Shown: positions 2,237 through 17,664 of the stretch, piece after piece | Layout of the letters: the number at the start of each line of letters is the position of its first letter | Numbering within the stretch: the first letter of the stretch is position 1 | DNA from: Bryobacteraceae bacterium | Lineage (GTDB): Bacteria; Acidobacteriota; Terriglobia; Bryobacterales; Bryobacteraceae | DNA length: 51,014 nt | Assembly (NCBI GenBank): GCA_036006545.1 | Contig: DASYPO010000224.1 | Location: 1 to 51,014, forward strand | Reading direction: 5' to 3' | Notes under the pieces: generated by a model | What the model was told of the DNA's origin: nothing | Seen by the model: the letters and a program-made list of their open reading frames with translations, nothing else | Databases searched by the model: none | Position numbers and translations under genes: made by a program

Positions 2237-2251
2237 AAAAGGACAAAACTC

Positions 2252-2578
2252 ATGCCCAACGCTCCAGTGCACCACGAAGTAACCCTCAACTATGGCTCGC
2301 CGTTCTCCGCGAACCCGCCCAAGATTCAAGTGAAGCCTGGCGACACCATCTCGTTTAGGTTGGGCCAAGGCCCCGCAAACGGCAAAATTCGTGTGACCTT
2401 CAAGGCTAGTGACCAGGCACGCTTCTCGGCGCGTGTATTCAACGGGGGAGATCCGAACGTTCGGGTCACTGCCAGCGTAGTCCCAACGACCTACCACTGT
2501 GAACTCCTGGTTAACGGCGCAGTAGTCGCGGAGAGCCAGGAAAACGGCGGCGAGATTGAGCCGGCCCCCGGCAACTAA
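2252..2578 (+). CDS. hypothetical small protein (108 aa)
   Basis: The ORF starts 15 nt after the kinase stop, with a purine-rich tract upstream (aaaaggacaaaactcATG). Codon usage resembles the neighbours. No family was recognised. Confidence 0.5.
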   Translation: MPNAPVHHEVTLNYGSPFSANPPKIQVKPGDTISFRLGQGPANGKIRVTFKASDQARFSARVFNGGDPNVRVTASVVPTTYHCELLVNGAVVAESQENGGEIEPAPGN

Positions 2579-2628
2579 ATACCGAAGATTCCTGCGAACC
2601 TTCGCGGGGCTGCATCGTACTTAGTTGC

Positions 2629-5097
2629 ATGCATTCCCTGATGACGCAGGTCCGCCTGGTCGGGCGGCGCCTCGCCCGCACGCCGATGTTCACGTTCATT
2701 ACGCTGCTGACGCTGGCCATCGGCATCGGAGCTAACAGCGCGATATTCAGCGTCATCAACGGAGTGCTCCTGAAGCCGCTACCTTTCGACCAGCCCGAAA
2801 GACTGGTCGGTGTGTGGCACACTGCGCCGGGACTGGGTTTCAAGCAGCTCAATTCGTCGCCGTCCACTTATTTCACATACAAGGACGAGACGCAGACGTT
2901 CGAAGATTCTACCGTGTGGCAAAGCAGCTCGGTGACCATCACCGGATTGGCCGAGCCCGAGCGCGTGCAGGCGTTGTACATTACCTCCAGCTTCCTGCCG
3001 ATCCTGCGCGTGCAGCCGACGGTCGGCCGCGCATTCACTGCCCAGGACGACGCACCAAAGGGTCCCAACAACGTGATCCTGACGCACGCCTACTGGCAGC
3101 GCAAATTCGGCGGCGATCGATCCGCCATCGGCAAACGCCTGCTGATCAGCGGTGAAGCCTACGAGGTCATCGGCGTGATGCCGGAAACATTCCGCTTCCT
3201 GGATACCACTCCCGCGGTACTGTTACCGCAACAGCTCGATCGGACCAAGGCCTTCGTCGGTGGGTTCAGTTACCAATCGTTCGCACGCCTTAAGCCCGGC
3301 GCGACTATCGAACAAGCCAATGCCGACGTCGCGCGCATGCTGCCGATGATGCTCAACAAGTTTCCGATGCCGCCCGGATTCACGGTGGCGATGTTCAACG
3401 ACGCGCGCATCGGACCAAATGTTCATCCGCTCCGGGATGACGTGGTCGGCGACGTAGGCAAGACCCTCTGGGTGATCGCCGCGACAGTAGGGATCGTGCT
3501 GTTGATCGCTTGCGCGAACGTCGCGAATCTTCTGCTGGTGCGCGCCGACGGCCGACGTCAGGAGTTGGCGATTCGTGCCGCATTGGGTGCCGATCGCGGA
3601 CGGCTTGCCCGCGAGCTTCTGGGCGAAAGCATTACGCTGGGCCTCATTGGCGGCGCACTCGGGCTTGGCCTCGCGTGGGCGGGACTACGTTTGCTGGTGC
3701 AAATCAATCCCGGAAATCTTCCGCGGTTGAACGAAATCACGATCGATCCGCTGGTGCTGCTGTTCACGCTGGGAATCTCGCTGATCGCGGGCGTGCTGTT
3801 CGGACTGATTCCGGCGTTCAAGTACGGCGGTCCGAAGCTCGAAACTGCGCTGCGCCAGGGCGGACGATCGTCGAGTCAGGGTCGCGAGCGGCATCGCGCG
3901 CGGTCGGTGCTGGTGGTCTGCCAAGTGGCCATGGCGCTGGTGCTGCTGATCAGCTCCGTATTGATGATGCGAACCTTCCAGGAACTCCGCAAGGTCGAGC
4001 CGGGATTCAAGAATCCCCAGGAGGTGCTCACCCTCCGCATCTCGATTCCGCAGGGCATGGTGAAAGACGACGGGCAGGCGACGCGCATGCATCAGGAAAT
4101 CCTGCGACGCGTATCGGAAGTTCCGCAAGTCGTCTCCGCAGGACTGACGACGTCGGTGACCATGGACGGCAATACCTCTAACGATCCGATTTTCTTCGAG
4201 GACTACCCGACGCCTGAGGGCCAAATCGCGCCACTGCGCCGCTACAAGAGCGTCGCACCTAATTATTTCCACACGATCGGACGGCCGATCGTGGCTGGGC
4301 GGGATTTTACCTGGAACGACATTCTGAACCTGACGCCGACGGTGATTCTGACGGAGAATCTGGTGCGGGTGCATTACAAGGATCCGAATCTAGCCATCGG
4401 CAAGCGCGTACGTGAGCGGCCCGGCGGCACGTGGCGCGAAATCATCGGTGTGGTGGGCAACGAGCATGATGACGGCGCCGATCAGAAAGCCACCGCCGTC
4501 GCCTACTGGCCGATCATGCAGCGCGATTTCTGGGGACAGAAGATCCAGACGCAACGCAATTTGTTGTACGTAGTGCGCAGCCCGCGGGTGGGTACGCCGG
4601 CGCTGCTCGACGACATTCGCAAGGCGGTGTGGTCGGTGAATCCGGATTTGCCGCTGGCCAATGTGCGGACACTCGAGGAAATTTACAAGCGCTCAATGGG
4701 ACGCACGTCGTTCACGCTGGTGATGCTGGCCATCGCCGGGATCATGGCGATGCTGCTGGGCATTGTCGGAATCTACGGCGTCATTTCGTATTCCGTCGCC
4801 CAGCGCACTCGCGAGATCGGAATCCGCATGGCGCTTGGCGCGCGCGAGGAATCGGTGCGCGGGATGTTCGTGCGCCATGGCTTGCTTCTGACGGGAATTG
4901 GAGTGGCTGCGGGGATCGGTGCGGCATTCGCGTTGACGCGGCTGATGTCGTCGCTGCTGTTCGGAGTCAGCCCACTGGATCCGGTGACATACGTGCTGGT
5001 TCCGATCGGTCTGCTGGGGGCCGCGTTCGTGGCGAGCTATCTGCCGGCGCGACGGGCTACGGTGATCGATCCGGTGCAGGCGCTGCGGTCGGAATAA
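2629..5097 (+). CDS. ADOP-family duplicated permease (MacB-like periplasmic domain + FtsX, twice)
   Basis: The N-terminus LVGRRLARTPMFTFITLLTLAIGIGANSAIFSVINGVLLKPLPF is typical of the acidobacterial duplicated orphan permease family. There are two FtsX-type 4-TM halves, each followed by a REIGIRxALGA-like loop (ELAIRAALGAD and REIGIRMALGAR). Confidence 0.9.
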   Translation: MHSLMTQVRLVGRRLARTPMFTFITLLTLAIGIGANSAIFSVINGVLLKPLPFDQPERLVGVWHTAPGLGFKQLNSSPSTYFTYKDETQTFEDSTVWQSSSVTITGLAEPERVQALYITSSFLPILRVQPTVGRAFTAQDDAPKGPNNVILTHAYWQRKFGGDRSAIGKRLLISGEAYEVIGVMPETFRFLDTTPAVLLPQQLDRTKAFVGGFSYQSFARLKPGATIEQANADVARMLPMMLNKFPMPPGFTVAMFNDARIGPNVHPLRDDVVGDVGKTLWVIAATVGIVLLIACANVANLLLVRADGRRQELAIRAALGADRGRLARELLGESITLGLIGGALGLGLAWAGLRLLVQINPGNLPRLNEITIDPLVLLFTLGISLIAGVLFGLIPAFKYGGPKLETALRQGGRSSSQGRERHRARSVLVVCQVAMALVLLISSVLMMRTFQELRKVEPGFKNPQEVLTLRISIPQGMVKDDGQATRMHQEILRRVSEVPQVVSAGLTTSVTMDGNTSNDPIFFEDYPTPEGQIAPLRRYKSVAPNYFHTIGRPIVAGRDFTWNDILNLTPTVILTENLVRVHYKDPNLAIGKRVRERPGGTWREIIGVVGNEHDDGADQKATAVAYWPIMQRDFWGQKIQTQRNLLYVVRSPRVGTPALLDDIRKAVWSVNPDLPLANVRTLEEIYKRSMGRTSFTLVMLAIAGIMAMLLGIVGIYGVISYSVAQRTREIGIRMALGAREESVRGMFVRHGLLLTGIGVAAGIGAAFALTRLMSSLLFGVSPLDPVTYVLVPIGLLGAAFVASYLPARRATVIDPVQALRSE

Positions 5098-5190
5098 TGG
5101 GGGGGCGGATCCCCTGATCCGCGGCCGGCCCCCTGGCCGGCCTTCTGCGGGACGAGGGCGTCCCGCGCGGGCGAGGGCGCCCGCCCCCCA
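5098..5190. repeat. GC-rich tandem-hairpin element (REP/BIME-like), instance A. It fills the whole convergent spacer.
   Basis: Four consecutive perfect hairpins with 4-nt loops: gcggatc-ccct-gatccgc (5105-5122), ggccggcc-ccct-ggccggcc (5123-5142), gggacg-aggg-cgtccc (5149-5164) and gcgggcg-aggg-cgcccgc (5167-5184). They are flanked by an outer inverted repeat, tgggggggcgg ... ccgcccccca. Confidence 0.8.
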
Positions 5191-6736: not shown

Positions 6737-9700
6737 CTATCGGATCGCGACCGGCGCAGAGCGGCTGGTCTGTCCGGCGACCGTCAGAGTGATCGGCACT
6801 GCCGCGCCACTCACCCCTGCGGGTACCACTACGTTCACTTGGTACAAGCCGGTGGAGCCGGGTGTGAGTCCCGCGAATCCCGCGTTCACGGTTTTGTCGC
6901 CGATGGTCACCGTTACGGGCGAAACCGTGTTCGCAAGCCGATCGAGCGGCGCGGGCGAGCCTGCCGCAACACTCACATCGGTGGGGCCGAGGCCAGTGCA
7001 ATAAATCACCAGCGTGTCCCCCGCTTGCGCCGGCGAGGACGACGAAACCAGGAATTGCGTCCCGTCGCTGCGCGCCGCGACCACGATTGCATTGACGCCG
7101 CCCGAAAGAAAAATTCCCGGCTGCGCCGCCGCCACATCCACCGTCACCGGCGTCGACAAAGTTTGCCCGCGCTGGATTTGAATCTGTTGCGGCGTTTCAG
7201 TGTTGATTCCGTACGGAACCAGGAAATTGATCTGGCCTTCGCTGACGATATGCAGCGGTGCAATCTCACCGGCGATGACCACGACGGTGTTGCCGAGCTT
7301 CTCAGGCAGCGGTACCGACGTGGCTTGCGCCAGTCCGTCTGCCAGGCGGTTCCCGAAGATCGAAACGAAACTGCCCGGCGCGATGGGCTGATACGGCACC
7401 GGATACGCCGCGCTGCCCAGGGAGCCCTTCGTGAACGCGGGAGGATCCTTGTCGGATTTGAGCGACCCATCCACTTCGCGCGAGCCGCTGATGTTCAGCT
7501 TCGGATCGATGGCGTCCAGGCGCAGCACCAGGTTCCCACCGCCGCTGTGAGTGGAGGTCCAGGTGGCCTGCCAGGTTCCATCGTTGAGCGAGTGAAGCGG
7601 AACCGGAGTATCTCCGTTCGAGAAACTAACGGTGACATCGCCGGCGACTAGCGGATTAAAGCAATCGTCTGTGACCTTGGCAGTGATTGCAACCGGCCAG
7701 CCCGCATTGGCTGCAAAAGCCGTGCCGATCGAAGTCATGGCGGGGACCAGCCGCGTCGGCGAGCATCCGCTTGCCGCACGCGTGTCGGAACCGTCTTCGA
7801 CTTGATTCCCACTTGCCGCAGCCGGGGTCGCGATGACGGTGAGCTTCACCGATTGAACGCGTCCATCGGAGAATTGGAAGTTCAAAATCTGGGTCGACGT
7901 CCCGACGGGGAAAGTTCCGCTGGGCTGAATCACGACCGGCGACGGCTGGCTGGGATCGAGCGCGCCTTCGTGCGGCAATACCAGCACGCCGAAGCCCGGC
8001 GGGCGGCCGATCGCGAAAGTTTTTGCGCCCGCGCCGATGCTATAAACCAACAGCGTCTGCGAGCCGGGCGTCAGACCGGGCGTGGCGTTGAACACTAGTT
8101 CCTGCGGCTGCACCATCGCGCCAGGCTCGGACCCGGCGGGCAGCACCTCCAGAAAAATCGTGACCACCTGCGGGCTGTTCGCGGCGCCCGGCGCGGTGAT
8201 GCGCACGAGGCCATAGTAATTTCCGGCCGCCAAACCGGTTGCGTCGACACCCACCGTGACCTGCGGCGCGACCGCGGCGGCGCTGCTCGCGCCGGTGCGC
8301 GGACTGATCTGCAGCCAATTGGGACCGCCGGCGAGCGTGGACGTGCTGGCAGTCCAGTTCAGCACGCCGGTTCCGACGTTCACCACTCCGAAGGTCTGCG
8401 TGGGAACCACGCCGCCTTTCGCCACCGCGGTGAAGCTGATGCCGGTTTGGGTGAGACGCAGCGCCTGCGTCAGCCTGCTGATGGTCATGACGACTGGAAT
8501 GACGACCGTTCCACCGGCGTCGCCCCGGATTTCGATGGTCGCCGTATAGGTACCGGGCGCGAGCGTGCCCGGGTTGGCCGTGACTGTGAGCGAGACCGGT
8601 TTTCCCGGCGTAAGTTTTCCGGATGCGGGCGAAATCGCGAGGAAGCTGCCGCCCGAAACCGCTGGAGCCGTCGCGGTGAAATTGATTGTGCCGCCGCCCG
8701 CGTTCAAAACCCGCAAATTCGCGGAAGTGGCTGCCGTGCCGCGCGGGAAAGTGAAAGAAAGATTCGGCTGATCTGTGGCAAGCTGTGGCGGCTGCGGCGG
8801 GCCGACATCAAAGGTCACGCCGATCGTGATTTTCGCGGGTGTGGCTGCGGTCGGCGTGATGGTGACGGTGGCCGAATACGAACCGGGAGCGAGATTGGTC
8901 GGATCCGCGGTAAGCGAGATTACGCGCGGGGTGGAACCGGTAGTCGCGTCGGCAGTCAGCCACTTGGTCGGGCCGGGGGTGTCGATCGCGACGGCGAAGT
9001 CGAGACCTGCGAGCGAGCCAGTCACGGTGACTGATTTCGACAGCGGCGCTCCGCCGCTGGCAGCTGAAAAATTCAAATTCGACGGGAACGCCTGCATGCT
9101 CGGCGTCGCGGCCGGAACCACACGCACGCGGTAATTGTATTCGTCGGCGATATAGAGATTTCCCGCGGCGTCGAAAGCCATCTCATTGACCACCGGGATG
9201 GATGCCGCGGTCGCGATCTTGCCGTCGCCCAACTGATCGGAGGGGCCGCCGCCGGCGACGACGGAAATCGCTCCAGCCTGCGTTACCTTGCGGACCCGAC
9301 CGCCGTGATCGGCGACGAACAGATTCCCCGCGGCATCAAAGCGCAGCGCGCTGGGCGAGCCAATGCCGCTCGAAACAAAAGTCGCGATCATGCCCTGCGC
9401 GTCGATTTTGCGAATCAGATTGTTGTCGTGGTCGGTGACGTACACATTTCCCGCGCGATCCACTTCAATGCCCGCCGGATTCGCGATCTGCGCGCTGACA
9501 GCGGGTCCTCCGTTGCCGGTGTTGCCCGGCGTGCCGGTACCGGCGAAGCGCGTGACTTTCCCGGTTGGATCGATGCGCTCGACGCAACAGCCCGAGCGCG
9601 CGACCAGCAGATTACCGGATGGGTCGAACGCCAGCGCGATCGGATTACTGATACCGGACGCGAAGGTGGTGATCAGACCGAAGGGACTAACCTTGCGAAT

Positions 9701-11020
9701 TCGGGAGTTGTCACGATCGGCGATATACAGATTCCCGGCGGTGTCGAAGGCAAGTCCCTGGGGGCTGTTCAGCGTCGCCTGCGTGGCAGGACCGCCATCG
9801 CCGGAGAATCCCGGGGTGCCGTTTCCAGCAAAGGTGGTGAGGAATCCATCCTTGACCTTGCGGACGCGATATCCGTTGCGCTCCGAAAAATAAACCGAGC
9901 CTTCCTTGTCGACGGCGATGCCGTAGGGCAGCCCCAGAGGCGCGGTGAGCGCCAGCACGCCTTCTCCGGAGTAGCGATAATTCCCGTTGCCGGCGATGGT
10001 GTTGACGATTCCGTTCGAGATTTTGCGCACGCGCGCGTTGCCGCGGTCGCCGACGAAAACGTTCCCGCTGCGATCCACGGCCAAGTAGAGCTGGCCTTGA
10101 AAACGTGCGCTGAGCGCCGGCCCACCATCGCCCAGAAATCCTTTGTTGTTGGGATCGCCCGCGATCAGCACGTCGGTCGTCGCACCGGGCGCGAGCTTGT
10201 ACACGGCGTTGCCGCGACTGTAGTAGAGCGTGCCTCCGCTATCCGCCGCCAGGCCGTCCACGCCGTAGTTGGTCAGCGATGAGATTCTTCCGTTCTTGTC
10301 GATTTTGCGGATATGGCCGTTCTCCGCAATGTAGAGGTTGCCGGCGCCATCGAGGGCTAGATAATTCGGTGAGGATAGTTGCGCGTTGATCGCCGGTCCG
10401 TCGTTGCCGGCAAATCCCGCGGTGCCGGTCCCCGCAATGGTCGTGATGATTCCGTCCAGTCCAACTTTGCGGATGCGATTATTGCCCGAATCGCCGATGT
10501 ACACGTTGCCCGCGGCATCCACCGCGATCCCGTTATTGGGTGCGATCTTGGCCAGCGTGCCAGGGCCGTCGTCGCCCCCATAGCCCCCGAGCACGCCGGT
10601 GCCGCCCGCGATTCGCGTGATGATTCCGGCAGGTGTGACCTTGTTCACGTTCGAGCCAGTCAAAATGTACAGGTTTCCCTGTGCGTCGAAGGCGGCGGCG
10701 CGAGGCGAAAAAATTCCGGCGCTGGTAGCCGGGCCACCCTCGCCCGAGTTCAGAAACGTGAGCAGGCAAAAACCGTTTCCCGCGAGCACTTTGAATTTTC
10801 CGTCGGCTTGCACACGCCCGACCATGCAATCGTTGTTGACCACGATCACAGGATTTCCGTCGGGATCGAGCGTGATCCCAGAGAGGTCGCCGATGGGCGC
10901 GTTCAGGGCGGGTTTGCCGTCGCCCGGAAACACCCAATCGGTTCCGGCGAACGTAGTCAGGACGCTCTGCGCTTGCAGCAGCCCCGAGAGGCAAATCCAA
11001 AGAACAGTTTGCTTCACCAA
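6737..11020 (-). CDS. large secreted NHL-repeat protein with Ig-like modules and a Solibacter-type C-terminal domain (TIGR03437-like)
   Basis: Signal peptide MVKQTVLWICLSGLLQAQS. About 12 NHL-type blades (GNLYIAD..N.RIRKV pattern repeated). Ig-like modules follow, then a Cys-pair module (SGCSPTRL ... VTDDCFNPL). The C-terminus AGLTPGSTGLYQVNVVVPAG...VAIR matches the tails of the 39-51 kb paralogs. Confidence 0.9.
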   Translation of the reverse strand: MVKQTVLWICLSGLLQAQSVLTTFAGTDWVFPGDGKPALNAPIGDLSGITLDPDGNPVIVVNNDCMVGRVQADGKFKVLAGNGFCLLTFLNSGEGGPATSAGIFSPRAAAFDAQGNLYILTGSNVNKVTPAGIITRIAGGTGVLGGYGGDDGPGTLAKIAPNNGIAVDAAGNVYIGDSGNNRIRKVGLDGIITTIAGTGTAGFAGNDGPAINAQLSSPNYLALDGAGNLYIAENGHIRKIDKNGRISSLTNYGVDGLAADSGGTLYYSRGNAVYKLAPGATTDVLIAGDPNNKGFLGDGGPALSARFQGQLYLAVDRSGNVFVGDRGNARVRKISNGIVNTIAGNGNYRYSGEGVLALTAPLGLPYGIAVDKEGSVYFSERNGYRVRKVKDGFLTTFAGNGTPGFSGDGGPATQATLNSPQGLAFDTAGNLYIADRDNSRIRKVSPFGLITTFASGISNPIALAFDPSGNLLVARSGCCVERIDPTGKVTRFAGTGTPGNTGNGGPAVSAQIANPAGIEVDRAGNVYVTDHDNNLIRKIDAQGMIATFVSSGIGSPSALRFDAAGNLFVADHGGRVRKVTQAGAISVVAGGGPSDQLGDGKIATAASIPVVNEMAFDAAGNLYIADEYNYRVRVVPAATPSMQAFPSNLNFSAASGGAPLSKSVTVTGSLAGLDFAVAIDTPGPTKWLTADATTGSTPRVISLTADPTNLAPGSYSATVTITPTAATPAKITIGVTFDVGPPQPPQLATDQPNLSFTFPRGTAATSANLRVLNAGGGTINFTATAPAVSGGSFLAISPASGKLTPGKPVSLTVTANPGTLAPGTYTATIEIRGDAGGTVVIPVVMTISRLTQALRLTQTGISFTAVAKGGVVPTQTFGVVNVGTGVLNWTASTSTLAGGPNWLQISPRTGASSAAAVAPQVTVGVDATGLAAGNYYGLVRITAPGAANSPQVVTIFLEVLPAGSEPGAMVQPQELVFNATPGLTPGSQTLLVYSIGAGAKTFAIGRPPGFGVLVLPHEGALDPSQPSPVVIQPSGTFPVGTSTQILNFQFSDGRVQSVKLTVIATPAAASGNQVEDGSDTRAASGCSPTRLVPAMTSIGTAFAANAGWPVAITAKVTDDCFNPLVAGDVTVSFSNGDTPVPLHSLNDGTWQATWTSTHSGGGNLVLRLDAIDPKLNISGSREVDGSLKSDKDPPAFTKGSLGSAAYPVPYQPIAPGSFVSIFGNRLADGLAQATSVPLPEKLGNTVVVIAGEIAPLHIVSEGQINFLVPYGINTETPQQIQIQRGQTLSTPVTVDVAAAQPGIFLSGGVNAIVVAARSDGTQFLVSSSSPAQAGDTLVIYCTGLGPTDVSVAAGSPAPLDRLANTVSPVTVTIGDKTVNAGFAGLTPGSTGLYQVNVVVPAGVSGAAVPITLTVAGQTSRSAPVAIR

Positions 11021-11061: not shown

Positions 11062-13905
11062 CTATTTGTAAACTCCCACAGCTTTGAAATCGCCGGCCTT
11101 GACGATCGAAACGGCTTCCGGATCAATGTGTTTGCGGAAGGCGGCGTTGATTTGCTCTGGTGTCAGCGACTGGATTTTCGCTTCGAGCTGTTCGTCCCAC
11201 TTCATGGTTCGGCCGTCCTGCTCGTGCTGCGCGAGAACGCCCAGCAACGCGCCGTCCTGTGAGCGGCCTACGCTGCGCGAATCGAGATACGCTTTCTTCG
11301 CGTCGGCAACTTCCTGCGCGGTGAAGCCTTCCTTCAGAGTGCGCTTCAGCTCATCTATGTAGCTGAATTCGACCTTGGGACCGTTCACCGGATTCAGGCT
11401 GACTGTCGCCGAGAGCATGGCCGAATCGCCTTCAGAAGGAATCGCGACGCGGGCGTTCGCGCCATAGCTCAAGCCTTCGCGATTGCGGATGCGATCGGAA
11501 ACGTGCGACGTGATCGGTCCGCCGAACATGTAGCCGGCCAGCAGCATGGCGGGATAATCGGGATGCTCCTGCGACATTGGGAAACGCACGCCGGCTTCGA
11601 ATTGCGCGTTGGCCTTGTCGGGAGTTTCGATCTTGGTGTTGATGGGCGCGGCTTTCTTGAATTTCGTATCGATGCGCTTGTACGTCATCGACGTGTTCCA
11701 GTTGCCGAGCAACTCCGCCGCGAGTTTCTGCACGTCCGCGGCCGGCACGGGACCGACTTCGGCGAACACGCCATAGTTCGCGCCATAGAACCGGGAGTGG
11801 AACGCTTTTACGTCGGCGAGCGTGACTTTTTTCAACTCGGCTATTTGCTCCTCACGCGTGGGGCTGTAGAGCACGTCGCCCTTGGTCCATGGCGTCAGGT
11901 GGCGCTGCAGTAATTCGGTCGCGAGCTGGGTGGGCTCGGTCGGAACGTTCTCTAGTGCCTTGAGCCGCTGCGTGCGCGCCAGTTCGAATTCGGTTTCAGG
12001 ATAAGCCGGCTCCTTCAGCATCTCCACTGCGAGTCGAAGTGCGGGCGCGAAATTCTTGGCTGGCACGGTGATGCTTGCGCTGGCGCTTGAAACGCCGCCG
12101 CCCCCGCCAAATCCGCCGCCGCGTCCTCCACGACCGCCGCCTCCTCCACCACCACCGCCACCGCTGACCGCGATATTCGCGTCCAGCTTGCGCATCTCAT
12201 CCTGCAACTGCTGACGCGTGTGGCTCTTCGTTCCGCCGCGTTGGATCAGCGATCCGGCGAATTGAGCCGCGGCGTTCTGACCCTTGAGGGTGGTCGCGTC
12301 ACCGAAACGAAGATCGATGGTCGCGAGCACCATGCTGTTCGCGGTTTCCTTGGGCAGCACGACGACCTTCATTCCGTTCGCCAGTTTGGAGCGGACGACG
12401 CGTGCTTCGATATTCGCGGGCGTAGGATCGAATCGCTCGGCCTTCGAAATCGTAACCTTGCTCGAGTAGTTGGCGAACAGCGAACTGAAGGTGGGCGTCG
12501 GCGGAATCACCGTGCGATCCGGCACGGCGTCGGGAATGTAGTAGCCGACGGTGCGGTTGGACGCTTTGAAATACGCCTGCGCGACGCGGAGCACATCGGA
12601 TGGACCGATGTCTTCCAGGCGATCGTGTTGCAGGAACATCAGCCGCCAGTCGCCCTGCGCAATGGCGGCGTTGAGCGCGCCGGTGGCGATCGACTGCGGA
12701 TCGCTGAGGCTGCGTTCGAGATTGCGGAGCAGACCGGTGCGGACGCGATCGACCTCTTCTTTGGTCGGCGGATTCTTGAGTACGTCGGCCAAGGCGTCGA
12801 TCAGCGCCTTACGCGCCGCGTCGAGCGACTGGTCCTTGTTGAGATTCGCGGTGAGGAAAATGAGACCGGGATCGTGCTGCAACTGCGCGTTCATGCTAGC
12901 CGATTCCGCGAGCTTGGTATCGACGACGGCTTTCGTCAGCCGCCCTTCTCCGCCGCCACCGCCGCCGCGTCCACCTCGGCCACCGCCGCGTCCGCCACCA
13001 CCGCCGCTCATAATTCCCGAGAGCACCTGCAGCGCCGCCGAATCGGGATGGCCAGCTGCGGGGCCATGGTACGCGATTACCACTTCCTGACCTTGACCGA
13101 CGCGACGCAGTTCGACATAGCGCTCGCCATCCTGCGCGGGCTCGACCGTATAGGTCTGTTCGACGGGGGTGCTCGGACGCGCAATCTTCCCGAACGTGTC
13201 GGCGACCATCTGAAGAGTCTTGCTTTCGTCAAGACGACCGGTGATCACGAGCACGGCGTTGTCGGGCCGGTAGTATTTCTTGTAGAACGCAGCGGGCCGC
13301 TCGATCGGCACCCGCTCGAGATCTTCTTTGGAACCGATGGTCGACTTGCCATAGTTGTGCCACAGGTAGGCGGTAGCCTCGACGCGCTCACGCAGCACTC
13401 GCTCCGGGCTGTTCTCGCCGCGCTCGAATTCGTTGCGCACTACGGTCATTTCGGTGTCGAGAATCTGCTTGGTGAACTTGACGTTGACCATGCGATCGGC
13501 TTCGAGGCCCAGCGCCCATTTGAGATTCTCATCAGTGGCGGTGACGGTTTCGTAATAGTTGGTGCGATCGGACGAGGTGGTGCCGTTCCACTGCGCTCCG
13601 CGGTCGACGATTTCTTTTTTGATCTGACGGCCGTTGGTGGTCTCAATGAAGTTGAGATGCTCGAGCAGATGCGCCATGCCAGTTTCGCCGTAGCCTTCAT
13701 GACGCGAGCCGACCAGGTAGGTGACGTTGATGGTGACCTTGGGATTAGCCTGATCGGGATACAGCAGGACCTTGAGGCCGTTGGGGAAATTGTATTCGGT
13801 GATGCCTCCCATGGAGGCTTTTTTCTGAACCCCGGTCGGCAGCGTTTGGGCCAACGAGATCGACGCGAGCGAGAGGGCGATGGCAAGAGCGCGTGTGTAA
13901 GTCAT
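11062..13905 (-). CDS. M16-family zinc metallopeptidase (pitrilysin/insulinase-like, two fused halves) with Gly/Arg-rich inserts
   Basis: Signal peptide, the inverted zinc motif HLLEH (MAHLLEHLNF) and a downstream RNEFERGEN glutamates region. A second, inactive-type half follows. Two low-complexity tracts are present: GGGGGRGGGRGGRGGGGGGEGR and GGGGGGGGGGRGGRGGGFGGGGG. Confidence 0.9.
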   Translation of the reverse strand: MTYTRALAIALSLASISLAQTLPTGVQKKASMGGITEYNFPNGLKVLLYPDQANPKVTINVTYLVGSRHEGYGETGMAHLLEHLNFIETTNGRQIKKEIVDRGAQWNGTTSSDRTNYYETVTATDENLKWALGLEADRMVNVKFTKQILDTEMTVVRNEFERGENSPERVLRERVEATAYLWHNYGKSTIGSKEDLERVPIERPAAFYKKYYRPDNAVLVITGRLDESKTLQMVADTFGKIARPSTPVEQTYTVEPAQDGERYVELRRVGQGQEVVIAYHGPAAGHPDSAALQVLSGIMSGGGGGRGGGRGGRGGGGGGEGRLTKAVVDTKLAESASMNAQLQHDPGLIFLTANLNKDQSLDAARKALIDALADVLKNPPTKEEVDRVRTGLLRNLERSLSDPQSIATGALNAAIAQGDWRLMFLQHDRLEDIGPSDVLRVAQAYFKASNRTVGYYIPDAVPDRTVIPPTPTFSSLFANYSSKVTISKAERFDPTPANIEARVVRSKLANGMKVVVLPKETANSMVLATIDLRFGDATTLKGQNAAAQFAGSLIQRGGTKSHTRQQLQDEMRKLDANIAVSGGGGGGGGGGRGGRGGGFGGGGGVSSASASITVPAKNFAPALRLAVEMLKEPAYPETEFELARTQRLKALENVPTEPTQLATELLQRHLTPWTKGDVLYSPTREEQIAELKKVTLADVKAFHSRFYGANYGVFAEVGPVPAADVQKLAAELLGNWNTSMTYKRIDTKFKKAAPINTKIETPDKANAQFEAGVRFPMSQEHPDYPAMLLAGYMFGGPITSHVSDRIRNREGLSYGANARVAIPSEGDSAMLSATVSLNPVNGPKVEFSYIDELKRTLKEGFTAQEVADAKKAYLDSRSVGRSQDGALLGVLAQHEQDGRTMKWDEQLEAKIQSLTPEQINAAFRKHIDPEAVSIVKAGDFKAVGVYK

Positions 13906-13962: not shown

Positions 13963-15267
13963 TTAGGGGAGCGCGCTGAACGACTCAGGTGGCTGACAAC
14001 CGCTCCACTGAGTTTTCCGAACCAGCTCGGCTCTGCGGTTCGCGGCGCGATGCTGGTCGGTGTCACTAATCCAGTAGGGACGAGAAGCCGCGCAGCCTTC
14101 GGTCGTAAACCGCTTGGGATCGACGCCGTGACGGACCAGCCAGTCCCGCACAAGGTTGGCGCGTTCGAGCGAAAGTTCCGGCGGACGCGACTCGGTTGAA
14201 TCCGCGTGAGCTTTGATGAACAGGTTCAAGCTGGGATCGCGCCGTAACTCGGAGAGTACAAGATTGAGCGCGGATTCAGAATCACCGGTCAGTCGCGCCG
14301 CATCTTGCGCAAAACGGATTTTTCCACCGCGGAACGGAAGAGTATCGTCGTGCAGCTTGCGTCTGCGCGCCAACTCGAGGGCCAACGCGGACTGAGGATC
14401 GATGCGGATGGGAACGTTCGAGAACTGTGCCGAGGTCAGGAACAGAAGCACATCCAGATCGTCCTGAATCCGACCGGTGGACAAGCGAAACCCGACATCA
14501 CGCACGTCGGCTGCACCCAGCCAGGTTCCACTGACTTCTGCAGCGGAGGGGACGGGCCAGCCGCGGATTCTGGATGCGATCGCGGGCGTGGCTCCTCCCG
14601 CGGCGAGAGCTTGCACTACGAGGGTCTTCCCAGGAAAGCGCGCATCGAGAATATGAATGAGGCTGTTCGGCAGCATTACGCGGCGCCCGATGTGCGCACC
14701 CCCGATGAACAGCAGCGCCTTGCGGCCTTTGCGCAGCACCTCCTGTTCGACCACCCAGGCGAAGTGCGCGTCACGCCAATCGTTCATGTCGTCGTCGGCC
14801 GGGCCGGTTACGCGGGTCCAGTCGACGGGAGGATCGCCGAGCAAAACACGGATTCGCCGCGGTGCAGGAAGGGTCCGGTTGAGCGCGCGGACACTGGTAA
14901 AGAAATCCCGGTAAATCGGTGAGGACCAGACGCCGCTGACCTGCGTCGTGTTCTCCCAGGCGGCGTTGAGTTCGTCTTCGCGCACATCACCGCCGTCGAT
15001 GTATCGGTCCATCACAGTCTGGTAGCGGCCATTGCCGAACTCGACGACGATGTCTGAGACCTTGCCTGCGAATCCCGGGTGCCGAATCAAAGCGGTGATG
15101 AAGTCCATCGTTTCGGGCGAACCGTGAGCCTCGCTCAGCGCAACAATGGGATAGCGGTCGAACGCGTCGACCAGGTATTGCAATGCCGGCCGCGGAGACG
15201 GATCGCGTAGCTGCGCCGTGAGACTCGACAGAAGCGCGAGCGCGACGACCACTAATCGCTTCGGCAT
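13963..15267 (-). CDS. secreted protein with an N-terminal ChaN/Tiki/erythromycin-esterase-like domain and a C-terminal OmpA-type peptidoglycan-binding domain
   Basis: Start chosen at the ATG at 15267 (MPKRLVVVALALLSSLTAQL signal peptide); the tracked ORF extends further upstream without support. Motifs YPIVALSEAHGS ... IVVEFGNGRYQTVMDRYIDGG resemble the GE.H / E..Q..D.Y pattern of ChaN-like domains. The C-terminus SLERANLVRDWLVRHGVDPKRFTTEGCAASRP...NRRAELV is OmpA_C-like. Confidence 0.75.
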   Translation of the reverse strand: MPKRLVVVALALLSSLTAQLRDPSPRPALQYLVDAFDRYPIVALSEAHGSPETMDFITALIRHPGFAGKVSDIVVEFGNGRYQTVMDRYIDGGDVREDELNAAWENTTQVSGVWSSPIYRDFFTSVRALNRTLPAPRRIRVLLGDPPVDWTRVTGPADDDMNDWRDAHFAWVVEQEVLRKGRKALLFIGGAHIGRRVMLPNSLIHILDARFPGKTLVVQALAAGGATPAIASRIRGWPVPSAAEVSGTWLGAADVRDVGFRLSTGRIQDDLDVLLFLTSAQFSNVPIRIDPQSALALELARRRKLHDDTLPFRGGKIRFAQDAARLTGDSESALNLVLSELRRDPSLNLFIKAHADSTESRPPELSLERANLVRDWLVRHGVDPKRFTTEGCAASRPYWISDTDQHRAANRRAELVRKTQWSGCQPPESFSALP

Positions 15268-15283
15268 CGCCAATATTCTAGTG

Positions 15284-15571
15284 CTACGTTCGTCGCAACA
15301 TTGCGGCGATGGATGCGTGGCCCTTCTTCGTGGCCCAAGCGAGGGGCGTGGCCCACGGCTCTGCGTCGGGTTCCACGGGATCGGCGCCACGATCGAGGAA
15401 CAGACGCACCAGTTCGTCGCGACCCCAGCGGCAGGCCCATCCGAGCGGCGTGCTCTTGAGCAGATCATCGCGCAGGTCCATGCGCGCGCCGGCATCCAGC
15501 AGCGCGGTCGCGAAGGCCACGCGTTCGTCGGCGGTAACGTGGTCGCCCATAGTTACGACGTTGTGGAGCAT
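15284..15571 (-). CDS. small ankyrin-repeat protein
   Basis: ANK-type repeats (TALLDAGARMDLRDDLLKSTPLGWACRWGRDELVRLFLDRGADP...TPLAWATKKGHASIAAML). Start taken at MLHNV (15571); it is uncertain because the ORF stays open up to 15721. Confidence 0.65.
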   Translation of the reverse strand: MLHNVVTMGDHVTADERVAFATALLDAGARMDLRDDLLKSTPLGWACRWGRDELVRLFLDRGADPVEPDAEPWATPLAWATKKGHASIAAMLRRT

Positions 15572-15708
15572 CGTATGTGGTTCTGCGGGCTTTCTGAGCG
15601 GGAAATCGAACTGTAGCAATCGAAGTGCGACGGGCTGAACACGACCGGCATCGCGCACCGTACATGCTATGATCGTCCCGCCACCCGGCGTGACACGGGC
15701 CAAACCAA

Positions 15709-16710
15709 ATGATCGACGCATTGGTCGTCGGACAACATTACTCCAACGAAGAGATATTTAGTTCGCTACGTGTGTCGAATGCGGGCGGCATTCGTGTCTC
15801 GCTGAATGGTCGAGCTGTCCTAAGAGCCGTCGTCATGACGTCGGTGCAAGGTATTCATAGCGCCGGAGAGAACCCCTACCATGACAGACTTGAGGGCGAC
15901 GTCCTCACCTACACGGCTGCAGGAAAGCTCGGCCAACAAACGCTTGCAGGCGTGAACAATCGGCTGATCGAACAGAAGACTTTCAATTTCCCGATACACG
16001 GTTTTGTTTTGGTCGCGAGCAGAAGAGACAGGTCGGTGGGACCAAAACGCTGGAGGTATCTGGGGTTACTCGAATACGTCCGCCATTATCCAGACACCGA
16101 ACTCGACGCAGACGGCAAGGTTCGAAAGGTCTGGCTATTTGAACTCAAGATTCACCACGATCGAGGACTCATCCCCCTTGAGAACGAAGCTGCAATATCA
16201 AATGAGCTACTTGTAATCTCCAGGCTCAAGGCTGCCGCTAGTGCTGACGATGATGTGATTATCGATGAGAACCGCCAAGAGGGAGCAGAGAACGTCGAAC
16301 GGATCGAACGCGTTCGAAGCAAATTGCTGGCGTTGCCACCGCAGAGCTTTGAGTTGTTTATCAAGGATCTGCTCGTGCATTGTGGATTCTCAGACGTCTG
16401 CGTTACTAAGTTCAGTTCCGATGGCGGCGTGGACGTGAATGCCCGAGTTGGCGGCCGGATTTGGGTCTTCGAAAACACGCTGGTCCAGGTGCAGGCTAAG
16501 CGCTGGCTTCATTCGGTCGGACGCAAGGAAGTCGCCGAGTTGCGTGGGAGCCTGCAACCGTTCGCGAAGGGTGCGGTCCTCACAACGAGTCATTTTTCAA
16601 AGGCAGCTATCAATGAGGCGAGCGAGGCCGGCAAGAACCCAATTACCCTTGTCGATGGCTTTCGCTTGTCCAGAGTTGTCCTTGATGAAGGATTCCCTCT
16701 CGGAGTATGA
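15709..16710 (+). CDS. type IV (modification-dependent) restriction endonuclease: N-terminal SRA/PUA-like reader fused to an Mrr_cat nuclease
   Basis: The C-terminal half, FELFIKDLLVHCGFSDVCVTKFSSDGGVDVNARV...VQVQAKRW...GAVLTTSHFSKAAINEA...ITLVDGFRL, is a textbook Mrr catalytic domain (D...QxK). The N-terminal half, ENPYHDRLEGDVLTYTAAGKLGQQTLAGVNNRLIEQ, resembles the Y.DD..G..l.YtG.Gg..dQ.l..gN.aL core of SRA-type domains (tentative). GC is visibly lower than the flanks. Confidence 0.85.
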   Translation: MIDALVVGQHYSNEEIFSSLRVSNAGGIRVSLNGRAVLRAVVMTSVQGIHSAGENPYHDRLEGDVLTYTAAGKLGQQTLAGVNNRLIEQKTFNFPIHGFVLVASRRDRSVGPKRWRYLGLLEYVRHYPDTELDADGKVRKVWLFELKIHHDRGLIPLENEAAISNELLVISRLKAAASADDDVIIDENRQEGAENVERIERVRSKLLALPPQSFELFIKDLLVHCGFSDVCVTKFSSDGGVDVNARVGGRIWVFENTLVQVQAKRWLHSVGRKEVAELRGSLQPFAKGAVLTTSHFSKAAINEASEAGKNPITLVDGFRLSRVVLDEGFPLGV

Positions 16711-16770
16711 ATACACCTCCAACGGAGGACACGAGCGATCAGCTAGCGACGCGATCGCAGGAAGGGATTC

Positions 16771-16947
16771 ATGAAGATCGACGAGAAGAGCGACCAATGG
16801 TTTCGCTCACGCGCCACTGAACTGTATCACGAAGACGGGGAGATCGAAGTGGCCCACGACGCACCCGTCTCTAGGGGGGATGATGAGGGGGCGTATGTGC
16901 AGGCGTGGGTCTGGATACCGCTAGACGAGGAAGAAGACGACGCGTAG
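16771..16947 (+). CDS. possible small acidic protein (58 aa), below the ORF-track cutoff
   Basis: ATG at 16771 and TAG at 16945-16947, hand-translated as MKIDEKSDQWFRSRATELYHEDGEIEVAHDAPVSRGDDEGAYVQAWVWIPLDEEEDDA. It lies 60 nt downstream of the Mrr-like gene on the same strand, inside the same insert. Confidence 0.3.
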   Translation: MKIDEKSDQWFRSRATELYHEDGEIEVAHDAPVSRGDDEGAYVQAWVWIPLDEEEDDA

Positions 16948-16990
16948 TTGCAGCGTCGCGAGCCTAATTCATGAAGTGTTGATCGGGCTC

Positions 16991-17097
16991 GTGCTACGTT
17001 CGTCGCAACGTAGCGGCGATGGATGCGTGCTGCTTCTTCGTGGCCCAGGCAAGGGGCGTTGCCCACGGCTCGGCGTCAGGTTCCACGGTGTCGGTGC
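16991..17097 (-). pseudogene. orphan 3' fragment of an ankyrin gene (diverged duplicate of 15281-15387)
   Basis: Manual ungapped alignment with 15281-15387 gives 94/107 identical. It would encode ...VEPDAEPWATPLAWATKKQHASIAATLRRT*. An in-frame TAG lies at its upstream edge, so it has no 5' part. Confidence 0.6.
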
Positions 17098-17446
17098 TGA
17101 ACTAAGAGAGGTCGGGGCGCTCGGGCAGTTTTCGGGTAGGGATCGAGCGGTTCACAATGAGCTCCTTTCGGGGCCGCGCGGTTCCCGCGTCAGCCGCTGC
17201 GCCCGGTGTCCGCTCGCTCGGGCAGAAAAGAGTTCATTAACGCAAAACAATCTTCGGAAACTCAGGGGGACTCAGTCCCTTTCCGCGGACACGGTGGCAT
17301 CCTGATGAGCCACCGCCAGAATATCACGGGAGGCCCGCAGAATCGAGTCCGTCGCGATGCTGGGATCGATCGAAAAAATGCAACGTTAGCCCGATTGTCA
17401 GAATCTTCCAGGAGAGGGCCGGGGGCCTCCTGCGCACAGATGGGGC

Positions 17447-17474
17447 TTGACAAGCTTACGGCTCTGAATAGAAT
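17447..17474 (+). promoter_or_regulatory. candidate sigma70-type promoter for the small ORF-yvcK-glmU unit
   Basis: TTGACA (17447-17452), a 16-nt spacer, then TAGAAT (17469-17474). It sits about 20 nt upstream of the ATG at 17494. Confidence 0.3.
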
Positions 17475-17493
17475 AGGGATAACCTCCAATCCT

Positions 17494-17664
17494 ATGCCGG
17501 GCTGTGAACACAAGCGCACGGAATTCCTGATGCGTCGTGACGGGGTCGATTATCTGACGTGCCTCGACTGCGATCAGGTCTTCGAATCAGATGACCTCGA
17601 GCAGATCCCCTCTTTCGATGAGGCAGAGGAATCGGAGGAGCCGCAACGCAAGCGGGCTTCGTAG
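17494..17664 (+). CDS. possible small Cys/His (zinc-ribbon-like) protein with an acidic tail (56 aa)
   Basis: MPGCEHKRTEFLMRRDGVDYLTCLDCDQVFESDDLEQIPSFDEAEESEEPQRKRAS shows a CxH...CxxC pattern. The tracked ORF is longer (from 17206), but its upstream part looks non-coding. Confidence 0.35.
   Translation: MPGCEHKRTEFLMRRDGVDYLTCLDCDQVFESDDLEQIPSFDEAEESEEPQRKRAS

Follow-up and report, generated by a model that had tools for sequence, protein, structure and literature searches.

We analyzed a 51,014-nt stretch of DNA, referred to here as the window, from a soil acidobacterium of the Bryobacteraceae (GenBank assembly GCA_036006545.1, contig DASYPO010000224.1, positions 1-51,014, forward strand), in which a small cassette encoding a predicted modification-dependent endonuclease lies among the remains of an ankyrin gene. 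The cassette extends over about 1.4 kb (15576-16987) and carries two protein genes. The first, on the plus strand at 15709-16710, encodes the 333-residue endonuclease and is preceded by a leader (15576-15708, plus strand) homologous to positions 7738-7874 of L001, a related locus that is about 88% identical to the window. The second (16771-16947, plus strand) is a small acidic open reading frame (ORF) of 58 residues with an isoelectric point of 4.1. Left of the leader lies a 3' fragment of an ankyrin gene (copy A; 15277-15574, minus strand), and right of the acidic ORF a second ankyrin 3' remnant (copy B; 16985-17097, minus strand), so that a direct repeat brackets the cassette. The neighbors of the cassette are the ankyrin fragment and genes for OmpA, CofD and GlmU. 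Eight loci with the cassette were compared (the window, L001, L002, L031, L032, L033, L034 and L035); a further sequence, L008, is identical to L001 in the cassette region.

The endonuclease consists of an SRA-like reader in residues 1-150 (15709-16158), a linker helix, and an Mrr_cat nuclease domain of the PD-(D/E)XK type in residues 208-322 (16330-16674), the last recognized by Pfam with E=1.4e-20. The catalytic residues D242 (16432-16434), Q262 (16492-16494) and K264 (16498-16500) are unchanged across 42 homologues, and in the family profile the QAK of the nuclease is aligned to the GQAK motif of MspJI. The first 190 residues gave no match to Pfam, NCBIfam or PADLOC models, and the PADLOC matches to PDC-S02 and mREase_IV (E 4e-25 and 9e-11) cover only the C-terminal residues of about 180-326. 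A single-sequence search of the PDB with the nuclease found nothing. When a full-length AlphaFold model (predicted local distance difference test, pLDDT, of 66) was compared with the PDB, the best matches were MspJI (E 1e-10) and AspBHI (E 1.6e-9). A model of residues 1-185 (pLDDT 72, predicted template modeling score 0.74) had 17 PDB matches with E<0.01, and all 17 were SRA-like. These included AspBHI (2.6e-7), MspJI (2.9e-6) and LpnPI (9e-6), with template modeling scores of 0.57-0.63, and also the plant protein SUVH6, ScoMcrA, TagI and SauUSI. An earlier interpretation made from the letters alone (the sequence-only reading) had called the protein a fusion of an SRA/PUA-like domain with an Mrr nuclease and had proposed that its N-terminal domain be compared with readers of modified bases; both the Mrr_cat match and the structural matches bear out that call. 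An exhaustive search with the N-terminal domain matched 260 cluster representatives. Among 41 diverse proteins with this domain, Pfam SAD_SRA was recognized in 19 and RE_AspBHI_N, by weak matches, in 8, and the partner domains were HNH, Mrr_cat and AAA ATPases.

MspJI, AspBHI and LpnPI are SRA-PD-(D/E)XK enzymes with a D..(E/Q)xK motif that flip 5-methylcytosine (5mC) or 5-hydroxymethylcytosine (5hmC) out of the helix (PMC6765204, PMC4333417, PMC3479186, PMC4231741). The window nuclease has the same order of parts, namely an N-terminal SRA-like reader, a linker helix and a C-terminal D..QxK nuclease. These three enzymes were its best structural matches for the whole protein as well as for the N-terminal domain alone, and MspJI and AspBHI were the only PDB sequences reached by the family profile. 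Like them, it has no companion methyltransferase: a search of the ten largest window ORFs outside the region turned up no methylase domain, and the neighboring genes include no methyltransferase. However, at 14-18% identity, sequence alone does not suffice to place the nuclease in the MspJI family. It is also shorter, at 333 residues against 447-450 for the MspJI chains and 387 for AspBHI among the PDB matches, and does not match Pfam RE_AspBHI_N, unlike 8 of the 41 distant relatives. Escherichia coli Mrr shares the Mrr_cat catalytic domain and its (D)..QxK motif, but the reader of the window protein is an SRA-like beta-barrel and gave no match to the winged-helix domain Mrr_N. As in the SRA-HNH enzymes (TagI, and ScoA3IV/Sco5333), HNH nucleases are fused to distant relatives of the N-terminal domain, and the SRA domains of TagI and ScoMcrA matched the N-domain model with E values of 8e-5 to 1e-3; the window nuclease differs from them in having a PD-(D/E)XK rather than an HNH domain and in lacking a sulfur-binding domain. 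From the modeled fold and the conserved motif, it seems likely that the protein is a modification-dependent (type IV/IIM) endonuclease with an MspJI-like architecture. Such an enzyme would bind 5mC or 5hmC in incoming DNA, flip the modified base into the SRA pocket and cut nearby, and would act as a type IV/IIM restriction enzyme with no methyltransferase of its own. Enzymes of the MspJI type work as tetramers, and their 5mC/5hmC-dependent cleavage falls at a fixed distance (N12/N16).

Relatives of the nuclease are numerous. A full-length homologue search recovered 1,316 proteins at E<=0.001, the best 120 of which are 74-100% identical, and homologues with 74-93% identity abound in metagenome bins of acidobacteria, for example those of Bryobacteraceae and Acidiferrales. 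A scan of viral contigs found no relative, and plasmid and phage collections gave single-domain matches with no full-length relative. The protein remains 75-85% identical across acidobacterial lineages between which synonymous divergence (dS) is saturated. Such constraint is unusual for genes engaged in an arms race and raises the question of whether the gene serves defense at all. Its product could instead be an SRA/Mrr-like protein that is inactive or has a regulatory role, such as that of a sensor module, or could act in host DNA repair together with Vsr, truncated genes for which accompany the cassette persistently (see below); the match to Pfam NA-iREase1 (inactive restriction endonuclease), moreover, sits right at its threshold (27.1 vs 27 bits). 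However, the catalytic D, Q and K are invariant in the 42 homologues, the best structural matches are all active modification-dependent nucleases, and vsr is truncated in all seven loci that have it (at or before position 76 of the reference fragment of about 90 residues), leaving no working partner. A role outside defense is therefore quite improbable in our view.

The acidic ORF has no Pfam, PADLOC or NCBIfam match. It is a real gene linked to the nuclease, because it lies downstream of the nuclease gene in six of the eight loci, has a conserved core (KSDKWFR.RA.ELYH.DG.IEVD.NA.ISRGDD.GAYV.AWVWVPL), and shows a ratio of nonsynonymous to synonymous divergence (dN/dS) of 0.05-0.24 between contexts. 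Its presence is a difference from MspJI-type enzymes, for which no small acidic partner is known to have been described. Upstream of the nuclease gene, the leader contains the block TGCTATGAT (15665-15673), which resembles an extended -10 element and is 100% conserved against surroundings that are about 77% identical to L001. It is a candidate promoter by resemblance, although a consensus scan made no call there; the sole consensus promoter call in the region, at 17447-17474, falls outside the cassette. Scans of the region for terminators, tRNAs and Rfam families found nothing, and a hairpin after the acidic ORF was not significant (z = -1.8).

Composition, context and an empty site all mark the cassette as foreign to its surroundings. 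The nuclease gene has a G+C content of 0.535 and a third-position G+C content (GC3) of 0.587, compared to 0.61-0.63 and 0.70-0.76 for the flanking genes, and it lies 6-8 G+C points below the flanks in all five loci measured. The low G+C content that the sequence-only reading had seen in this gene was thus reproduced (53.5% vs 61-62% in the flanks), but its description of the whole as a low-GC islet applies to the nuclease gene and not to the acidic ORF, whose G+C content of 0.588 and GC3 of 0.71 are not low. The same nuclease gene occurs in six further unrelated contexts, in five of them also with the acidic ORF. In L001, where the gene order is M16 peptidase, OmpA, cassette, a 635-residue ankyrin gene, a small ORF, CofD and GlmU, the cassette is bounded by a 22-bp direct repeat, TCTAGTGCTACGTTCGTCGCAG, at 7404-7425 and 9235-9256 (21/22 identical). 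In L002 the cassette, there running from a truncated vsr to an Eco29kI gene, is bounded by a 23-bp direct repeat at 7732-7754 and 9833-9855 (22/23 identical). The two repeats are unrelated in sequence, each being local host sequence.

Run X12 contains a 602-nt contig, about 90% identical, in which the 3' end of the ankyrin gene runs straight into OmpA, the ankyrin stop codon lying directly beside the OmpA start. The 22-bp sequence occurs in it once, and exactly 1831 bp present in L008/L001 are missing (the joint corresponds to L008 536/2393); the contig's 25 unaligned letters are diverged ankyrin codons in frame. Because a relative has the empty site and the L001 copy is flanked by 22-bp repeats, the cassette is an insertion in the slot between ankyrin and OmpA. 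The slot is also variable, since it is empty in the X12 relative and holds a different gene in L029. There, a DUF2779 (nuclease-like) gene at 1119-5162 lies between the ankyrin 3' end and OmpA, with an ankyrin 3' copy of about 480 bp on either side. The two copies are about 80% identical, and the one on the OmpA side is decayed by indels and stops. The slot thus occurs with the nuclease cassette, with the DUF2779 cargo or with neither. The horizontal acquisition proposed by the sequence-only reading is supported by the foreign composition, the unrelated contexts and the empty site in a related genome, and the relatives did not present the same arrangement with uniform composition. Relative to L001, dS is 0.27 for the nuclease gene and 0.16-0.19 for the acidic ORF, compared to 0.41-0.56 for flanking core genes; judged from these values, the cassette may have been exchanged between the lineages at a later time.

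Other searches were less productive. Scans of genome and metagenome contigs with the OmpA-family protein found only one close lineage (L008, equal to L001), the others being about 55% identical and without synteny, and the ankyrin orthologues in L030, L036 and L037 (70-73% identity) have lost synteny and gave no empty site. In L035, the cassette sits between a HEPN/nucleotidyltransferase toxin-antitoxin pair and a second nucleotidyltransferase gene (3780-4503 and 6940-7290), and is thus placed within a further small cluster of defense or toxin-antitoxin genes. A duplicated target gene was considered at that locus and rejected, the two NTP_transf_2 genes sharing only 24 bp and no real duplication.

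No gene for mobility accompanies the cassette. No recombinase, integrase, excisionase or transposase was found in or beside it at any of the eight loci, nor was an integrase or transposase domain found in the ten largest ORFs of the window outside the region; a single IS66 copy, 4 kb away, occurs in L032 only. The cassette ends have no tRNA gene, Rfam family or inverted repeat, and the cassettes share no right-end sequence. These results agree with the sequence-only reading, which had noted no integrase, transposase or inverted terminal repeats. They also bear on the idea that the cassette is a decayed island once carried by an integrase, with the repeats as its left and right attachment sites and the integrase gene later deleted. 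Such islands typically have direct repeats that contain a gene's 3' end, and repeats of 22-23 bp do flank the cassette in both L001 and L002. However, a recombinase gene is lacking in the window and in the seven other loci, the L001 and L002 repeats are wholly different and so have no common attachment core, the repeat lengths differ (22, 23 and 110 bp for the cassette and about 480 bp around the L029 cargo), and there is no tRNA gene. We regard an integrase-borne origin as very improbable. A DNA transposon would bring terminal inverted repeats and a transposase, neither of which is present, although the 22-23-bp repeats in L001 and L002 do resemble target duplications; no element with target duplications of this length is known to us. 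The locus resembles the variable defense slots found between core genes, with which it shares differing cargo in one slot and the absence of a mobility gene. It differs from them in the short or long duplications of the upstream gene's 3' end at the borders of the insertion, and in the 22-23-bp repeats at two independent loci.

In the window itself, the bracketing repeat is longer than those of L001 and L002. Positions 15281-15387 and 16991-17097 are identical at 94 of 107 positions without gaps, as the sequence-only reading had counted, and a repeat finder extended the match to 15278-15387 and 16988-17097 (96/110, 87%). The repeat must be real, because the best 107-mer match in ten shuffles of the surrounding 5 kb reached only 49-54 of 107. 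It starts 3 nt past the ankyrin stop codon (15284-15286, minus strand) and spans the last 33-34 codons, also as described before. The ankyrin-derived sequence of copy A continues beyond the 110-bp repeat to a total of 298 bp, matches L001 9235-9532 with 87.6% nucleotide identity, and contains 95 open codons (15284-15571) with two ANK repeats (Pfam Ank_2, E=7.5e-15). It ends at junction J2 (15572-15580, the joint itself at 15575/15576), an illegitimate joint placed by three-way alignment with L001, where position 298 of the ankyrin 3' end is fused to a site 133 bp ahead of the nuclease start codon, where a truncated vsr is found in L001. The ORF of the ankyrin fragment is open further upstream to an ATG at 15721 (15284-15721, 145 codons). 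This longer frame crosses the leader of the cassette in antisense, with a 13-nt overlap at the nuclease start codon, and its extra 50 codons are derived from the cassette.

Copy B consists of the last 34 codons and stop of a former 635-residue ankyrin gene (its translation ends in TVEPDAEPWATPLAWATKKQHASIAATLRRT followed by the stop) and is 78% identical to the L001 ankyrin 3' end. An intact 635-residue ankyrin gene occupies the same position in L001, on the CofD side of the cassette. In the window, an ankyrin 5' remnant (17105-17155, minus strand) comprises a GTG start codon at 17153-17155 and 16 further codons, VNRSIPTRKLPERPDLS, identical to residues 1-17 of the L001 protein. Between the two remnants lies the joint of an internal deletion of about 1.75 kb (17098-17108, minus strand), located by three-way alignment with both sides of the L001 gene, which shows microhomology of GGCGC. 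The reading frame across the deletion is VNRSIPTRKLPERPDLS, a stop, and then FSTDTVEPD...RRT and the final stop; the in-frame TAG (17102-17104, minus strand) is the stop that the sequence-only reading had noticed at the upstream edge of copy B. Because copy B is continuous with the first 17 codons, with the deletion between them, it is the tail of a once-complete gene, now a pseudogene after an in-frame internal deletion with a stop at the joint. The deletion is strain-specific, since contigs of near-identical strains from runs X12 and X13 that match from 17109 onwards continue beyond 17108 into intact ankyrin 5' sequence. Other public soil runs contain contigs that support both rearranged joints, each with zero differences: one of 151 nt in run X5 spans 15543-15693, including the joint between ankyrin fragment and cassette, and one of 648 nt in run X1 spans 16582-17229, including copy B and the deletion joint.

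The two ankyrin copies therefore have to be understood differently than before. The sequence-only reading had taken copy A for an intact small ankyrin gene and copy B for an orphan fragment, but in relatives the gene encodes 635 residues; copy A is a 3' fragment of it, and both copies are its remnants. It had also found it odd that the order of intact gene, island and displaced 3' end seemed to be reversed. This oddity disappears because the fragment had been mistaken for the intact gene: in gene orientation the order is deleted gene body, copy B, cassette, copy A and OmpA, which is the classical order of a (here gutted) gene, the cassette and a second 3' copy. That recombination at the 3' end of the gene was involved holds as a description, since insertion and rearrangement both took place at the ankyrin 3' end, but it names no mechanism and no recombinase is present.

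As for the age of the duplication, the copies and L001 were compared over the 99 nt that they share, where copy A has 2 unique changes, copy B 10 and L001 12 (Tajima relative-rate test for A and B, p=0.02). These counts indicate that the A/B duplication arose in the window lineage and that B has changed faster than A. Copy B also differs from A and L001 by a 3-nt change, having a CAG (Gln) codon where they have GGC or GGG, and the same allele is found in L029 and the X12 relative. Signals as to which copy is native are conflicting.

We favor as the likely history that a two-gene cassette with an MspJI-like nuclease was inserted beside the ankyrin gene, that the repeats are copies of the ankyrin 3' end, and that a rearrangement and a deletion followed. 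The original insertion, as in L001, would have duplicated 22 bp only. In the window lineage, a template switch or tandem duplication begun at the 22-bp repeat would then have placed the 298-bp ankyrin 3' copy (copy A) on the OmpA side, copying 276 bases of the ankyrin end in addition to the repeat, and in doing so would have replaced the truncated vsr with which the cassette begins on its left in other loci. In a second step, a microhomology-mediated, in-frame deletion of about 1.75 kb would have taken ankyrin codons of about 18-600, so that 17 codons remained at the N-terminal end, followed by a stop and by the last 34 codons (copy B). Judging from the junctions, these two events are probably the shortest path from an L001-like ancestor.

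Several points weigh against this history and against the enzyme assignment that forms part of it. The family profile reached MspJI with E=0.1 and AspBHI with E=0.42, values that are not significant, and did so over the C-terminal part only at 14-16% identity. The structure models are of moderate confidence, with loops 47-56 and 73-81 poorly predicted, and the modified base, probably 5mC or 5hmC, is deduced from the fold only. The order and number of the rearrangements are drawn from two relatives and short metagenome contigs only. Copy A appears to be under purifying selection (dN/dS 0.058, and 2 unique changes vs 10, p=0.02), which is unexpected for a functionless duplicate. The CAG codon of copy B suggests that part of B was imported rather than having simply decayed. 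Finally, the independent duplication of about 480 bp around other cargo in L029 suggests a general duplicating mechanism rather than a one-off accident.

The main rival, because it explains both the constraint on copy A and the CAG codon of copy B, is homologous integration of the Campbell type. A circle carrying the cassette together with about 300 bp of the ankyrin 3' end, from a related strain, would have recombined with the ankyrin gene already present. The native 3' end, displaced, would now be copy A, and the incoming one copy B, which briefly completed the gene before the deletion. The observed order follows directly, with J2 as the joint at which the circle was closed. Copy A does behave as a true orthologue of L001 (dS 0.58, dN/dS 0.058), copy B has the CAG allele of L029 and the X12 relative, the slot in L029 holds its DUF2779 cargo between similarly long ankyrin 3' copies, and dS of the cassette relative to L001 is about half that of the flanking genes. 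However, copy B is closest to copy A over the shared 99 nt and has most of the changes particular to the window lineage, so that the donor would have to be a very close relative. Half of the unique changes in B are at third codon positions, compared to 81% for the functional ankyrin gene, which fits decay. Neither a circular form nor an excision joint appeared in the runs examined. Excision through the 110-bp repeats had been considered on its own account and was rejected, no joint that skips 1710 bp being present in runs X1-X5, X12, X13 and X16. On balance we consider Campbell-type integration unlikely, and insertion followed by local duplication and deletion remains our preferred history.

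The other loci offer some indication of where the cassette came from. In seven of the eight loci, all but the window, the nuclease gene is immediately preceded by a 3'-truncated vsr, the gene for the very-short-patch repair endonuclease. The fragments are at L001:7462-7734, L002:7789-8004, L031:5774-5977, L032:5930-5989, L033:4766-4945, L034:4796-4957 and L035:4702-5004. That of L001 is matched by Pfam Vsr with E=1.5e-24, and that of L035 is called as a Vsr gene. Six of the seven start with MDT(L/M)TP, while L034 keeps an internal part only, matching residues 23-76 of the L001 fragment; the truncation points vary in the others (residues 20-28, 34, 52, 60, 68 and 68). Their dN/dS of about 0.1-0.5 is a rough figure, since few codons entered it and dS is saturated. 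The distance from the end of the left repeat to the vsr start codon is 34-36 nt in L001 as well as in L002. On the downstream side, genes or remnants of an Eco29kI-type nuclease follow closely in three unrelated contexts (L002:9237-9833, L033:6362-6688 and L035:6418-6918), and no methyltransferase gene was called beside them. A possible remnant of C5-methyltransferase motif I in the stretch between truncated vsr and nuclease gene (L002 FAGASDLALGFEKAGF; L033 GGVAFAIEQAGF) was considered because of a resemblance that has no statistical support and was set aside, as searches of Pfam and PDB sequences did not bear it out.

Taken together, the vsr fragments, the Eco29kI remnants and the bounds of the unit suggest, as a hypothesis, descent from a 5mC restriction-modification module in which the methyltransferase was replaced. 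A bolder proposal can be built on this, which we offer tentatively as possible rather than likely. The cassette could be a mobile module without a recombinase, of about 1.8-2.1 kb, made up of truncated vsr, the SRA-Mrr nuclease gene, the acidic ORF and sometimes an Eco29kI-type gene. It would descend from a type II restriction-modification operon of vsr, C5-methyltransferase and Eco29kI-like nuclease, in which a nuclease that attacks 5mC took the place of the methyltransferase. Its target duplications, unusually long at 22-23 bp, could grow to hundreds of base pairs, and the acidic ORF would encode a partner such as an inhibitor or modulator.

The enzyme is of a known kind; as a defense slot, the locus is instructive but ordinary. 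Nevertheless, the enzyme would add a widespread and strongly conserved acidobacterial branch to the MspJI-type modification-dependent nucleases. Enzymes of this type are in use as epigenetic tools (PMC10954476), and a new specificity, if present, could be useful. The locus is also a clean, small example of a defense slot that evolves without mobility genes, being found empty, with a 22-bp duplication and with other cargo, and the window is a secondarily rearranged version in which the neighboring ankyrin gene was destroyed. The vsr/Eco29kI association and the 22-23-bp duplications are the features that most deserve follow-up. If the vsr, methyltransferase and Eco29kI remnants have been read correctly, they would document a switch from methylation-protective to methylation-targeting restriction at one site, and the locus would also point to an insertion mechanism with target duplications of 22-23 bp that we cannot assign to any element known to us.

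Some features of the surrounding sequence complete the description. The gene on the OmpA side (13963-15276, minus strand) encodes an OmpA-domain protein with a ChaN-like N-terminal part (Pfam OmpA, E=7e-13; Cofac_haem_bdg, E=2e-4) that is 86.5% identical to its L001 orthologue, and the stop of ankyrin copy A precedes its start codon by 7 nt. Beyond it, an M16-family peptidase gene (11062-13905) has two low-complexity inserts rich in glycine and arginine, GGGGGRGGGRGGRGGGGGG and GGGGGGGGGGRGGRGGGFGGGGG. On the other side of the cassette, positions 17109-17557, from the ankyrin 5' remnant to a Cys-rich ORF, are 91-98% identical to L001 against a background of about 88%, and no Rfam family matched this stretch. 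It includes the near-consensus sigma-70-type promoter at 17447-17474 (TTGACA, 16 nt, TAGAAT). The Cys-rich ORF itself (17494-17664) encodes 56 residues with the pattern CxxxxxxC...CxxC, possibly a zinc ribbon.

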